Shown: positions 14,354 through 19,036, counted from the first letter of the stretch. The stretch is DNA of 64,000 nucleotides from Candidatus Latescibacterota bacterium (GCA_965248355.1 OZ252098.1:907099-971098), one strand, 5' to 3'. The notes: a model not told the origin generated them from the letters alone. A program made the numbers and translations.

Positions 14354-14369
14354 TGGCACCGCTCTTGCA
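14354..14369 (+). promoter_or_regulatory. sigma-54 (-24/-12) promoter
   Basis: TGGCAC-CGCTC-TTGCA matches TGGCAC-N5-TTGCW exactly. GG (14355-56) and GC (14367-68) are 12 nt apart. It lies 86 nt upstream of the pspA ATG, and a sigma-54 activator is encoded in the same operon. Confidence 0.8.
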
Positions 14370-14454
14370 TTGGACGGCTTCACCCCGACCCCTCGGTGGA
14401 GGAAGAGGCACCGAACGGTTACTTTTCCGCAACCAGCCACGAGAGAGACGAGCG

Positions 14455-15150
14455 ATGGCAAAGGGCATGTTCGCGCGCATGGCAGACATTCTGCGGTCCA
14501 ACCTCAACGAGGCCCTCGACCGCGCCGAGGATCCCGAGAAGCTGATCCGGCAGATGGTCCGCGAGATGGAGGAGGCCGTGAACAAGGCCACCGCCTCGGT
14601 GGGCACGGCCGTGGCCAACCAGAAGCGGCTGGAGCGCCAGCACGACGAGCGGATCGCCCAGTGCGAGGAGTGGCAGCGCCGGGCCGAGCGCGCCGTCGAG
14701 GCCAACGAGGACGACTTGGCGCGGCGGGCCCTGGAGCGCCGGGCGGTCCTGCAGCAGGCGGCCTCCGACCTGGCCCCGGCCCTGGAGGAGAGCCGGCGGA
14801 CGGCGGAGCAGTTGCGGGAGCAGCTGCGGGAGTTGAAGGAGAAGCTCGAGGAGGCCCGGACGCGGCAGGGAACCCTGATGGCCCGCCACCGGGCGGCCGA
14901 GGCCCGCAAGCGTCTGGCCCAGTCGATGCACGGACTCGGCGATGATGCCTTCTCCAGCTTCGAGCGTTTCGAGCAACGTGTCGAGGACAGCGAAGCCGAA
15001 GCCGAGGCCCACGCCGAGGTCGCCTCCGATCTGGGCGAGGTGGAGCGGCGGGTGCGGGACATGGACAGGTCGGCCGTGGTGGAAGACGAGTTGAGGGCGC
15101 TCAAGGAGCGGCTCGTGCGCGAGCGCGGGGGAGCCTCGGGAAAGGGCTGA
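14455..15150 (+). CDS. pspA: PspA/IM30 family (phage shock protein A-like)
   Basis: ATG 14455 within ORF 14341..15150. The N-terminus MAKGMFARMADILRSNLNEALDRAEDPEKLIRQMVREMEE is the classic PspA amphipathic helix/coiled coil. The rest of the protein is all-helical coiled coil. Confidence 0.9.
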   Translation: MAKGMFARMADILRSNLNEALDRAEDPEKLIRQMVREMEEAVNKATASVGTAVANQKRLERQHDERIAQCEEWQRRAERAVEANEDDLARRALERRAVLQQAASDLAPALEESRRTAEQLREQLRELKEKLEEARTRQGTLMARHRAAEARKRLAQSMHGLGDDAFSSFERFEQRVEDSEAEAEAHAEVASDLGEVERRVRDMDRSAVVEDELRALKERLVRERGGASGKG

Positions 15151-15153
15151 GGG

Positions 15154-16018: not shown

Positions 16019-16029
16019 GGAGAGGGAAG

Positions 16030-16176
16030 ATGCTGGTCAAGATCCTTGGAGTCGCCTTGCTGGTCGTGGGCGTCGTTCTCGCCCTGGACATGCTGCTGGG
16101 AGTGCTCTGGTCGATCCTCTCCGTGGCCTTCGTCGCCGCCCTCGTCTGGGGCGGATGGAGATTGCTGAAGTCGTGA
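16030..16176 (+). CDS. 48-aa two-TM hairpin micro-protein
   Basis: Not in the ORF track (below cutoff). GGAGAGGGAAG SD sequence, ATG 16030, translation MLVKILGVALLVVGVVLALDMLLGVLWSILSVAFVAALVWGGWRLLKS, TGA 16174-16176. Its stop overlaps the start region of the kinase gene. Confidence 0.5.
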   Translation: MLVKILGVALLVVGVVLALDMLLGVLWSILSVAFVAALVWGGWRLLKS

Positions 16177-17618
16177 GGGGGCCCGCGGTCGAGGCCCGCC
16201 CGCAGGCCCTGCTGGAGGAGGGACGCCGGCTCTTCCGCCAGGGTCGCCACCCCGAGGCCCGCGAGGTCCTGGAGCGGGCGCTGGAAACCGCCTCGGAAGA
16301 GGCGGGCGGGTCCCCCGGGAGCGGGCGCGCGGAGATGCTCTTCCTGCGGGGCATGTGCCACCTCCAGGAGGGCGGGGAGGCCGACGCCGTCGAGGATCTG
16401 GAGGCGGCCTCCCGCCTCGGCTGGCTGGAGGCGCGATTCCAGCTCGCCCAGCACTACGCCCGCAAGGGCCGCCGCGGGGGCGATCTGCGCCGGCGGGCGA
16501 TCTCCCATCTCGAACAAGTGCTGGCCGCCGGAGCTGACGACCCCAGCCTCGCCGCCGGCCGGGACCGGGTCTGCTTCGCCCTGGGCGGCCTCTACGCCGA
16601 GGGGGAGGCGTCCGGGGACGTCGATCGGGGGATCGCGGCCTACCGCCAGGGTCTGTCCGTCAACCCGCTGTCCGCTTCCGGGCACAACAGCCTGGGACAG
16701 CTGCTCATGCGCTTCGAGCCCCTCGGCGCCCTCGGCGAGTTCAAGGTCGCCCTGCAGCTGGACCCGGATCTGCGCGCCGCCTACAGCAACCTCGCCCGGC
16801 TGTTGCTCGAGCACATCCAGCCGCGAGAGCTCGCCGCCGAGTACGCCCGCATCGTGGAGGAGTTCGAGGAACGGGCTTCCCACGTGCTCGCCCGCCTGTC
16901 CCAGGAGCTGGTCGAGCTCGGGCGGGAGCAGGCCTATCGCGGCCTGTACACCAAGGGCCACCAGCTGAAGAACCTGATCGGCCTCGTGGGAAGCCGACTC
17001 CGGCGTCTGACACGGCGGATGCCTCCGCAGGCCGGGGCGGGCGAGGAACTGCGCCAGATCGAGCAGGAGCACGGCCGGCTCTACGAGGAGTGGGTCGGCT
17101 ACCTGTCGGCCATGACACCCGACCGCCTCGTCACGGGCCTCGTCGACCCGGCCCGGGTCGCACGCCGGGTGGTCGCCGCCCTGGGCGCCGACGCGCAGGC
17201 CGGTCTCGAGATCCGGGTCCAGGAGGGTGTGCCCCGGATCGAGGCGGATGAGCGCCTGCTCCGGGAGGCCGTCACCAACCTGTGCATCAACGCCCTTCAG
17301 GCCTTGGCCGGCGAGGCCTCTCCGGGCGAGGTCTCCGTCGGCGTCGGTTTCGACGACGGCGGCGTCTTCATCGAGGTGGAGGACACGGGTCCGGGGATTC
17401 CCGCCGAGGTCATGGACCACGTCTTCGATCCCGGCTTCACGACCAGGGAACAGGGCAACGGCTACGGTCTGGCCATCGCCCAGCGCATCGCCCATGCCCA
17501 TCACGGCGATCTGCGCGTCAAGAGCCGCGTAGGCCACGGCACCGTGTTCCGCCTCGACCTGCCCGTCAACTACGACGCCGACAGCCCCCACGACCGGATC
17601 GGCGGGGAGGCCCCGTGA
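16155..17618 (+). CDS. soluble TPR-repeat sensor histidine kinase
   Basis: No TM helix. The N-terminal ~250 aa contains TPR/Sel1-like repeats. It has an H-box (GHQLKNLIG), N-box (EAVTNLCINALQA), G1 (VEDTGPGIP) and G2 (GNGYGLAIA). An alternative GTG start lies at 16173. Confidence 0.85.
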   Translation: MEIAEVVRGPAVEARPQALLEEGRRLFRQGRHPEAREVLERALETASEEAGGSPGSGRAEMLFLRGMCHLQEGGEADAVEDLEAASRLGWLEARFQLAQHYARKGRRGGDLRRRAISHLEQVLAAGADDPSLAAGRDRVCFALGGLYAEGEASGDVDRGIAAYRQGLSVNPLSASGHNSLGQLLMRFEPLGALGEFKVALQLDPDLRAAYSNLARLLLEHIQPRELAAEYARIVEEFEERASHVLARLSQELVELGREQAYRGLYTKGHQLKNLIGLVGSRLRRLTRRMPPQAGAGEELRQIEQEHGRLYEEWVGYLSAMTPDRLVTGLVDPARVARRVVAALGADAQAGLEIRVQEGVPRIEADERLLREAVTNLCINALQALAGEASPGEVSVGVGFDDGGVFIEVEDTGPGIPAEVMDHVFDPGFTTREQGNGYGLAIAQRIAHAHHGDLRVKSRVGHGTVFRLDLPVNYDADSPHDRIGGEAP

Positions 17619-19036
17619 GCGGACGAGGCCGGGTCCTGATCGCCGATGACCAGCCGGAGGTGCGGGAACTGTTGGCCCAGAAGCTGCGGTCCCGGGGCAA
17701 GCAGACCGAGGTCTTTCACACCGGGACCGAGTTGCTCAAGCATCTGGCCGACCACGGCGACGGGGTGGAGCTGGCCGTCCTCGACCTCGATTTCGGGGCC
17801 GTCGAGCCCGACGGGCTGACGGTGCTGAAGCAGGTCCGCAGGCTCCGTCCGGAGTTGCCGGTGATCATCCTCACCGGCAAGGGGTCCGTCGACTCCGCCG
17901 TGGCCGCCGTGCAGGAGGGGGCCGCCGACTACATCGAGAAGGACCTCTACGTGGAGGACAAGCTCGAGCTGAGCATGGAGAAGGTCGAGCGCATGCTCCT
18001 CGTGATGCAGGAGAACGCCCGGCTGCGGGCCGAGAACGAGGCCCTGGACCGCGACAACCTGTTCTACCGCTCCGAGCTCGGTGGCCGCTACCGGATCGTG
18101 CAGGCCAGCGGCCGGGTCGAGCAGATCCTGCAGCAGGTGCAGCAGGTGGCCTCGATTCCGCGGCCGGTACTGGTGCGCGGCGAGCGGGGAACGGGAAAGG
18201 AGCTGATCGCCGCCGCCCTGCACTACGGGGGAGCCCGGGCCGATCGGCCGTTCGTCAAGCTGAACTGCTCGGCATTGTCGGAGACCCTGCTCGAGTCGGA
18301 GCTGTTCGGCCACGAGAAAGGCGCCTTCACCGGGGCCGGCGAGACCCGGCGCGGTCGCTTCGAGACCGCCGACGGCGGCACCCTGTTCCTCGACGAGATC
18401 GGCAACACGACCCTGGAGTTCCAGAGGATCCTCCTGCGGGTGATCGAGTACCAGGAGTTCGAGCGCATCGGCGGCAGCCGCACGATTCGCGTGGACGTGC
18501 GCATCGTAGCCGCGACCAACGCCGACCTCGAGGCCGAGATCGAGGCGGGCCGCTTCCGCGCCGATCTCTATGATCGCCTGCGGTTCACCGAGATCACCCT
18601 GCCCCCCCTGCGCGACCGGCGCGAGGACATCCGCCCCCTGGTGGCCTTCTTCGCTCACCAGCTGTCCGAGGAGGTCCCTTCGATTCCGAAGCGAGCCTTT
18701 GACGAGCCGTGCCTCGCGGTGCTCGAAGCCTACGCTTGGCCGGGCAACGTCCGGGAGCTGAAATTCGCAGTGGAGCGGGCCTTGTGCGTGGCCGACGAGG
18801 ACAGGGTGACGATCGCCGACCTGCCCCCGGAGATCGTCGGCGGCCGTTCGGTCCAGATCTCGGAGTTGGGCACGGGGCAGGCCTTCGACGAGCAGATGGC
18901 GGCCGTCGAGCGGGGACTTCTGCTACGCGCCCTCGAGCGCAGCGGCGACAGCCAGAAGGCGGCGGCGGCCTCCCTGGACCTGACCTACGACCGTTTCCGC
19001 CATCTCCTGCGCAAGCACGGCCTCACCCGAGGTTGA
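17615..19036 (+). CDS. sigma-54-dependent response regulator (REC-AAA+-HTH, NtrC family)
   Basis: GTGA overlap with the kinase stop. REC domain (VLIADDQ, LAVLDLDF), Walker A GERGTGKE, GAFTGA loop (EKGAFTGAG), Walker B LFLDEI, and a C-terminal Fis-type HTH (SQKAAAASLDLTYDRFRHLLRKHGL). Confidence 0.93.
   Translation: MSGRGRVLIADDQPEVRELLAQKLRSRGKQTEVFHTGTELLKHLADHGDGVELAVLDLDFGAVEPDGLTVLKQVRRLRPELPVIILTGKGSVDSAVAAVQEGAADYIEKDLYVEDKLELSMEKVERMLLVMQENARLRAENEALDRDNLFYRSELGGRYRIVQASGRVEQILQQVQQVASIPRPVLVRGERGTGKELIAAALHYGGARADRPFVKLNCSALSETLLESELFGHEKGAFTGAGETRRGRFETADGGTLFLDEIGNTTLEFQRILLRVIEYQEFERIGGSRTIRVDVRIVAATNADLEAEIEAGRFRADLYDRLRFTEITLPPLRDRREDIRPLVAFFAHQLSEEVPSIPKRAFDEPCLAVLEAYAWPGNVRELKFAVERALCVADEDRVTIADLPPEIVGGRSVQISELGTGQAFDEQMAAVERGLLLRALERSGDSQKAAAASLDLTYDRFRHLLRKHGLTRG

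Follow-up and report, generated by a model that had tools for sequence, protein, structure and literature searches.

Six genes behind a σ54 promoter element

We analysed a stretch of 64,000 nucleotides from a Candidatus Latescibacterota bacterium (GCA_965248355.1 OZ252098.1:907099-971098; hereafter the window, GC content 69%), in which positions 14354 to 19036 hold a σ54 −24/−12 promoter element followed by six genes on the + strand. The first encodes a PspA/IM30 family protein. It is followed by genes for a protein with two transmembrane (TM) segments and a winged helix, a membrane protein with a conserved cytoplasmic tail and a 48-residue hairpin peptide, and then by genes for a soluble TPR histidine kinase and an enhancer-binding protein (EBP) that carries a receiver (REC) domain. 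From these features and from 13 related loci we consider it probable that the cluster is a σ54-dependent Psp membrane-stress operon, switched by a two-component pair that its own two 3′-most genes encode.

The promoter element, TGGCAC-CGCTC-TTGCA at 14354-14369 on the + strand, matches TGGCAC-N5-TTGCA exactly, as a first-pass annotation of this DNA had claimed, and it is the single match in the window. Dinucleotide-preserving shuffles give an expectation of 0.01 exact matches per window, and of 0.54 when up to one mismatch is allowed. The same annotation had placed the element 86 nt before pspA; its upstream position stands, and the distance to the pspA start codon is corrected to 85 nt. We predict a transcript start near 14380.

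The six genes abut or overlap, with gaps of 3, 28 and 11 nt and overlaps of 22 and 4 nt at the last two junctions, in agreement with the tight packing described earlier. Neither a terminator-like site nor a σ70-like promoter turned up within the cluster in a consensus scan, and no conserved hairpin was found 3′ of pspA. This layout suggests co-transcription from pspA through to the activator gene. Because transcription from 14354-14369 would, given the packing of the genes, reach those of the kinase and the activator, the response would be self-amplifying. Positive autoregulation, which the first-pass annotation had proposed, would thus follow from the gene order and from the lack of terminator-like sites between the genes.

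The product of pspA (14455-15150, + strand, 231 aa) belongs to the PspA/IM30 family by its match to Pfam PF04012 (PspA_IM30; E 1.7e-43; score 149 bits, cut-off 33.9), and scores 155 bits with the NCBIfam model TIGR02977, which is under the equivalog cut-off. It is 38% identical to E. coli PspA, and the N-terminal helices are conserved. A mechanical list of open reading frames (ORFs) also holds a longer pspA frame with a GTG start at 14341; we set the start at the ATG at 14455 because that product aligns with E. coli PspA from its residue 4 onwards.

Conserved gene order and paired upstream dyads

Around homologues of the kinase (42-82% identity) we gathered 13 loci, L001-L003 from a genome collection and L081-L087 and L089-L091 by exact-protein look-up, which makes 14 counting the window. 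The order pspA, winged-helix gene, small membrane-protein genes, TPR kinase and REC-EBP is kept in 14/14 loci, drawn from metagenome-assembled genomes (MAGs) of Gemmatimonadota and Latescibacterota, so the arrangement recurs in relatives. Each of the 13 related loci carries pspA, an unannotated gene encoding 144-176 aa (its counterpart in L002 and L003 has a longer N-terminal form), between one and three further small genes without annotation, the gene of the TPR kinase and a gene for a REC-Sigma54_activat regulator. Several share the flanks of the window, with an SSF symporter upstream and NifU, superoxide dismutase (SOD) and AhpC downstream. In L083, L085, L090 and L091 the flanks are unrelated and the core is intact, which argues that the linkage is selected and is not simply an inherited neighbourhood. 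In L002 (5197-8016) and L003 (3413-7750) genes for an ECF-type sigma factor, an unannotated membrane protein and a flotillin-like SPFH/Band_7 protein of ~500 aa lie between the small genes and the kinase gene, with a STAS gene additionally present in L003; Pfam supports the sigma, Band_7 and STAS assignments. Since SPFH/flotillin genes are known neighbours of pspA (PMC11237479, PMC9239133), this insertion fits a membrane-stress role of the whole cassette.

Both strands of the 14 loci (292,405 bp) were scanned for σ54 elements, a strong site being one that agrees with TGGCAC-N5-TTGCA at 10 or more of 11 positions. A GG-N10-GC element with 9-11 matching positions of 11 lies 40-95 nt before pspA in 14/14 loci. 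Only 15 strong sites occur in the whole of this sequence, each of them directly upstream of a pspA gene. Three of the 15 precede a second pspA (in L083, L085 and L091), and conserved −24/−12 elements number 17 altogether.

Aligning the upstream regions on the promoter revealed two copies of a 15-bp palindrome with the consensus TGGCGG-N3-CCGCCA. In the window the distal copy (TGGCGGAAGCCGCCA, 14206-14220, no strand assigned) agrees with this palindrome at 12/12 positions and the proximal copy (TGGCGGGTCTCGCCG, 14238-14252, likewise) at 10/12, the two lying 32 bp apart from centre to centre. The exact dyad occurs once in the window, where 0.01 would be expected by chance, and 0.14 pairs of this quality are expected per shuffled window. 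The pair is found at the same relative position in 12/14 loci, and also before the extra pspA genes (3/3). The dyad centres are 21-22 bp apart in eight operon promoters and 31-32 bp apart in three (the window, L084 and L087), corresponding to two or three helical turns. The dyads lie ~85-145 bp upstream of the promoter, with the proximal centre 82-112 bp before the first base of the element. Activators of the NtrC class are dimeric proteins with a Fis-type helix-turn-helix (HTH) that assemble into a ring upstream of a σ54 promoter. Because the position, symmetry and helical phasing of the dyads match what is expected of this class, we read them as putative binding sites of the activator and hence as the likely enhancer.

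Elsewhere in the window just one more dyad-like pair is seen, at 49018-49053 (9/12 and 11/12, 21 bp apart). We take it to be a chance occurrence because it falls inside a gene for an FGGY carbohydrate kinase with no σ54 element nearby.

A second pspA paralogue is located directly 3′ of the regulator gene at L083:11068-11858, L085:11060-11891 and L091:12069-12843; the window has no such paralogue. Each of the three has its own −24/−12 element and dyads, so we predict that the regulon includes at least two pspA genes in these loci. In L085 and L091 the dyad pair is the same as that in front of the operon. L083 has three identical copies of the dyad TGGCGATCAGCGCCA with an exact 50-bp period (L083:10846-10960), as if the enhancer region had been duplicated in tandem.

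These data also bear on the possibility that the neighbourhood is coincidental, with the kinase-regulator pair serving some other regulon and a different EBP acting at the pspA promoter. The only tie between this regulator and this promoter is their co-localisation, which leaves room for such a view. It is set against a linkage that survives complete turnover of the flanks and crosses phylum labels, the lack of any further strong σ54 site in the 14 loci, and the recurrence of the same dyads at the extra pspA genes immediately after the regulator gene. We therefore judge coincidence to be very improbable.

Kinase, activator and the input signal

The activator gene (17615-19036, + strand) encodes a protein of 473 aa with Pfam matches to Response_reg, Sigma54_activat and AAA_lid_14. 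Its architecture is that of a REC domain, a coiled linker of ~45 residues rich in heptad-like repeats, an AAA+ domain and a Fis-type HTH, and the GAFTGA motif (at 18320, residues 236-241) is intact; the earlier assignment to the NtrC type is borne out. No second GAFTGA protein is encoded in the 64-kb window. The REC domain (PF00072, E 4.8e-19) carries D11 and D12 as its acidic pair and D57 as the predicted phospho-acceptor, along with T87 and K109. The protein aligns over its full length with Aquifex NtrC1 and NtrC4. Over the AAA+ and HTH regions it shares 47% identity with E. coli PspF, and the C-terminal HTH aligns to that of PspF (HTH_8 gives only a faint match, in a homologue). Among solved AAA+ domains PspF gives the best per-residue score, 250 bits over 222 residues as against ~212-220 bits for NtrC1, NtrC and FleQ, and with the NCBIfam PspF model TIGR02974 the AAA+ region by itself reaches 349 bits (cut-off 443).

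Enterobacterial PspF has no receiver domain and is held inactive by direct binding of PspA. PspA docks on PspF at the Y51-L52-W56 "YLW patch", whose residues are reported to be key binding determinants (PMC3791423). In 5/5 members of the family studied here the patch reads Y-G-A/R, with L52 replaced by G and W56 by A or R, which makes a PspF-style partner switch through this patch unlikely. Together with the presence of the receiver residues, this lends indirect support to the earlier suggestion that a phosphorelay replaces the partner switch. Dual control might be envisaged instead, in which PspA would still be a direct inhibitor of the AAA+ domain, as it is in E. coli, and the REC domain and kinase would form a second, additive layer. 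The closeness of the AAA+ domain to PspF, by identity, by per-residue score and by its 349 bits with the NCBIfam model, is what such a scheme would call for, as are the conserved N-terminal helices of PspA. Yet two of the three patch residues described as key determinants (PMC3791423) are changed in every family member compared, and we regard dual control as unlikely.

The kinase gene (16155-17618, + strand) encodes 487 aa with matches to Pfam TPR families and to HATPase_c (E 3.3e-25) and with no hydrophobic segment of transmembrane strength, as befits the cytoplasmic enzyme that had been described from the sequence; the regulator likewise lacks such a segment. In an AlphaFold2 (AF2) model with a mean pLDDT of 80, eleven TPR-like helices (residues 16-220) run straight into a helix of 66 residues bearing H269, which together with a return helix makes up a DHp hairpin (223-320) and is followed by the CA domain. 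Across 18 homologues H269 is invariant within H-(Q/R)-(L/I)-K-N (in the window H-Q-L-K-N at 16956-16970, kinase residues 268-272), the same holds for the N, G1, F and G2 boxes, and the TPR region is strikingly conserved. The closest Foldseek neighbours of the kinase core are ZraS (E 6e-13), CckA and HK853, and the best NCBIfam matches are AtoS and ZraS. The core is of the NtrB/AtoS/ZraS type, a class of kinases that pairs with NtrC-type regulators. The genes for kinase and regulator share 4 nt and co-occur strictly (14/14 loci), from which we infer that the two proteins form a pair and that phosphate would pass from the kinase to the regulator.

As a family the kinase is small, with ~7 near-full-length matches in a single stretch among the best 150 from 1.84 billion 50%-identity cluster representatives; when representative proteins were searched with the TPR region, generic multi-TPR proteins prevailed among the best 150. 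Close relatives of the kinase are many, and the few that are named come from Gemmatimonadota or Latescibacteria/Latescibacterota MAGs. In one homologue, P0019, N-terminal PDDGVST-like tandem repeats take the place of the first TPR helices.

Building on the observed sequence elements, domain content and joint conservation, we propose the following switch. Going by the domains and conserved residues, the soluble TPR kinase would autophosphorylate at H269 and hand the phosphate to D57 of the REC-AAA+ activator. The phosphorylated regulator would assemble on the two TGGCGG-N3-CCGCCA dyads ~110-140 bp upstream of the −24/−12 element, as the comparison of loci suggests, and its use of ATP and its GAFTGA loop would open the σ54 promoter at 14354-14369. 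Transcription would then cover all six genes, from pspA and the three small membrane-protein genes to those of the kinase and the activator, and so lead to self-amplification. Negative feedback by accumulating PspA would be a natural counterpart of this positive loop.

Several observations weigh against this scheme. The dyads of L002 and L003 are degenerate, AT-richer and match at 8/12 positions, and single dyad-like matches of 10/12 or better are common at 69% GC (26 observed against 15 in shuffles). Of the domain families named in the first-pass annotation, PspA_IM30, Sigma54_activat, HATPase_c and TPR were detected, and HisKA was not detected in the kinase by Pfam, with the H-box and the modelled DHp hairpin nonetheless present. 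The residue that follows the phospho-histidine in HisKA kinases is usually E or D; here it is Q or R in 18/18 homologues. Because HisKA goes undetected and this position is never acidic, the chemistry of the kinase may be atypical. Neither rpoN nor an RpoN-box was found in the 64-kb window, which is the only part of the genome scanned; the intact GAFTGA activator and the 17 conserved −24/−12 elements lend indirect support to the presence of rpoN in the genome. Finally, a strictly activator-dependent promoter that drives its own activator needs a basal supply of kinase and regulator, and no internal promoter was found.

How the stress signal reaches the kinase is the least supported step. Since the kinase has no membrane segment, has the TPR domain as its only sensor module and has membrane-associated neighbours, sensing through protein contact with products of the Psp operon appears most likely, and the candidate contacts would be PspA, the acidic winged helix described below and the tail or tails of the small proteins. 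The TPR domain may thus be a docking surface for PspA or the small membrane proteins, as the first-pass annotation had supposed.

The protein encoded next to pspA (15154-15642, + strand, 162 aa) has two hydrophobic segments and, as had been noted, a winged helix. In the AF2 model (mean pLDDT 69) a TM hairpin, whose second helix extends into the cytoplasm, precedes a winged helix of the order helix-strand-helix-helix-strand-strand. No Pfam or NCBIfam family matches the protein, and its 27 homologues are all nameless or called "hypothetical protein", the named sources including Gemmatimonadota and "Candidatus Handelsmanbacteria". Over 51 residues the winged-helix domain has a net charge of −4 to −8 in 21/21 homologues. 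Because it is so strongly acidic in all of them, we read it as a probable protein-binding module, not a DNA-binding one, and judge it unlikely to be the DNA-binding domain of a membrane-tethered transcription factor. Foldseek matches to the winged helix are generic (E 0.01-0.07). The ESCRT-II subunit VPS22 comes first (E 0.0098, root-mean-square deviation 1.6 Å over 60 residues), ahead of IclR, ArsR, MarR and Z-alpha domains; we do not claim kinship with ESCRT-II, the VPS22 score not being separable from those of ordinary IclR/ArsR/MarR winged helices.

The third gene (15671-16018, + strand) encodes a membrane protein of 115 aa with a conserved cytoplasmic tail. Its ORF opens at 15653, and the start at the ATG at 15671 was picked by alignment with L084 and P0297. 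In the 121-aa form given by the whole ORF there is one strong hydrophobic segment (residues 36-54), and a weaker N-terminal one can be discerned by eye. The tail, RLSEIEGRLTDTQDVMIALSEKMDRWE in the window, conforms to RLxEIExRLTDxQDVMIALSEKMDRWE and is nearly invariant among 12 copies aligned from 8 loci. Relatives have 52-138 aa and one or two N-terminal hydrophobic segments, and are present in one or two copies per locus; the 52-aa copy of L083 is without hydrophobic segments. None of ~30 relatives in databases is annotated. The first-pass annotation had called the protein PspB-like, a likeness that holds for topology and does not extend to detectable homology. Eight small proteins gave no Pfam match to PspB or PspC at E ≤ 10, and hhalign gave the 115-aa protein a probability of 7.5% against PspB; against PspC it was 32%, confined to the TM segment. 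We therefore reject the assignment to either, no homology being detectable.

The fourth gene (16030-16176, + strand) encodes the 48-aa hydrophobic peptide, a two-helix hairpin, and is recognised by the conservation of its ORF, which is kept at 48-63 aa in L082, L083, L084, L085, L087, L002 and L003; L091 and L090 have ORFs of 50 and 51 aa at this position. The peptide could not be assigned to PspG, PspD or any other family (no match at E ≤ 10).

With the same wiring, there is a limited but real chance that what the TPR kinase responds to is a cue in the cytoplasm that has nothing to do with the Psp proteins; this could be a metabolite, a client of a chaperone or some protein encoded elsewhere. 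In that case the three small membrane proteins would be effectors or anchors of PspA and not inputs to the kinase. TPR domains bind many kinds of partner, and the link drawn here between the TPR region and the products of the operon comes from sequence context. The copy number of the small proteins varies among loci, as would suit effectors or anchors, and LiaI-type anchors for PspA homologues are known (PMC11237479). Against a cytoplasmic cue, the kinase occurs in no other setting than this operon (14/14 loci), the sensor family is as small as the search of representatives indicates, and the TPR region and the small-protein tail are conserved very strongly, beyond what an accidental neighbourhood would require. 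We accordingly keep contact with Psp-operon products as the preferred input.

A bolder form of contact sensing, which we hold to be doubtful, is that the TPR kinase joins the three membrane proteins without annotation in a complex for sensing membrane stress that has not been known before. The acidic winged helix would act as a membrane-anchored receptor or nucleator of PspA, and the TPR domain would read the occupancy of this receptor or of the coiled-coil tail. PspA is a bacterial relative of ESCRT-III. If the complex existed, the polymerisation state of PspA would be converted into phosphorylation of a PspF-like activator, and the winged-helix receptor would recall the winged-helix subunits of ESCRT-II that recruit ESCRT-III.

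Known systems and neighbouring genes

To our knowledge, the switching on of membrane-repair proteins of the PspA/IM30/ESCRT-III type is understood in detail only for enterobacterial PspA-PspF, Bacillus Lia and mycobacterial ClgR. The locus merges features of enterobacterial PspF-PspABC and of Bacillus liaIH-GFSR and fails the defining features of both. With enterobacterial PspF-pspABCDE it shares a PspA/IM30 effector, a σ54 −24/−12 promoter, an AAA+ EBP acting from upstream and small single-pass membrane proteins encoded after pspA. It differs in that the activator has a full receiver and is encoded last in the operon, whereas PspF is divergently transcribed; in that a dedicated soluble TPR kinase is present and Y51-L52-W56 is not kept; and in that the 2TM winged-helix, coiled-coil-tail and 48-aa hairpin proteins replace PspB, PspC, PspD and PspE. 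In the σ54 regulome of Desulfovibrio, too, pspA is assigned to a PspF-type regulator without an additional domain (PMC4641369).

In B. subtilis liaIH-liaGFSR, as here, a PspA homologue and small membrane proteins come first and a two-component pair stands at the 3′ end; control is by phosphorelay and not by a partner switch, as we predict for the present locus, and induction can read through into the system's own regulators. In contrast to the present kinase, which is soluble and has a TPR input, LiaS is embedded in the membrane and controlled by LiaF. LiaR is of the NarL type and acts at a σA promoter, whereas the regulator described here is an NtrC-type AAA+ protein on σ54. LiaF, Toastrack and LiaI-LiaF-TM domains were not found, and the accessory proteins match no family in Pfam or NCBIfam.

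Two further systems invite comparison. ZraPSR is likewise an envelope-stress two-component system with a σ54 activator, ZraR, and the core of our kinase is closest to the cytoplasmic domain of ZraS. Unlike our kinase, ZraS senses the periplasm through a membrane-anchored domain and has no TPR, and its effector is the periplasmic chaperone ZraP and not PspA. The PEP-CTERM system PrsK/PrsR/PrsT also combines a histidine kinase, a σ54-dependent response regulator and a TPR component. There, unlike here, the TPR component is a separate protein, and the targets are exopolysaccharide/sorting genes, not pspA. NCBIfam gives partial matches to PEP_resp_reg and PEP_his_kin, far under the family cut-offs.

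No match to this layout was found in the full-text literature searched, whose coverage leaves out subscription-only journals. In the accessible parts of the broad Psp phylogenomic surveys Gemmatimonadetes go unmentioned, "TPR" appears a single time in one of them and is absent from the other, no TPR kinase is tied to pspA, and no receiver-bearing relative of PspF is reported beside pspA. The first-pass annotation had not recognised the arrangement as a described system, which agrees with this literature. σ54 control and two-component control of PspA homologues are each already known, so the principle is not new, and a regulator pair inside the PspA operon has a precedent in B. subtilis (liaIHGFSR). 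What would be new, consistent with the literature searched, is this combination in poorly studied phyla together with three accessory protein families.

The cassette would represent a fourth solution, found in Gemmatimonadota/Latescibacterota, in which a soluble TPR kinase governs an AAA+ motor of the PspF kind by way of a phosphorelay. It is compact, with six genes, a defined promoter and a predicted operator. Its three conserved, unannotated membrane proteins are candidate signal inputs or PspA anchors and would add new families to the list of Psp partners. The locus may also serve as a natural intermediate for the question of whether PspF arose from a receiver-containing activator by loss of a domain.

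Some minor features of the loci may be recorded. The second pspA of L083 is followed by a gene for a TM2-domain protein (L083:11858-12259), the C-terminus of which, RMDRIDGELCDLQSIMTRIDGRLE, resembles the tail of the small membrane proteins and hints at a shared interaction motif. In L090 pspA is called as two ORFs of 162 and 85 aa (L090:7072-7765), pointing to a frameshift or to a fault in the assembly of that contig. In the window the operon is followed on its 3′ side (19149-21223) by a gene of ~105-117 aa without a Pfam match and by NifU-like, Fe/Mn superoxide dismutase and AhpC/peroxiredoxin genes. No σ54 promoter or dyad pair stands in front of the NifU/SOD/AhpC genes, and this downstream block is syntenic in most Gemmatimonadota-type loci.

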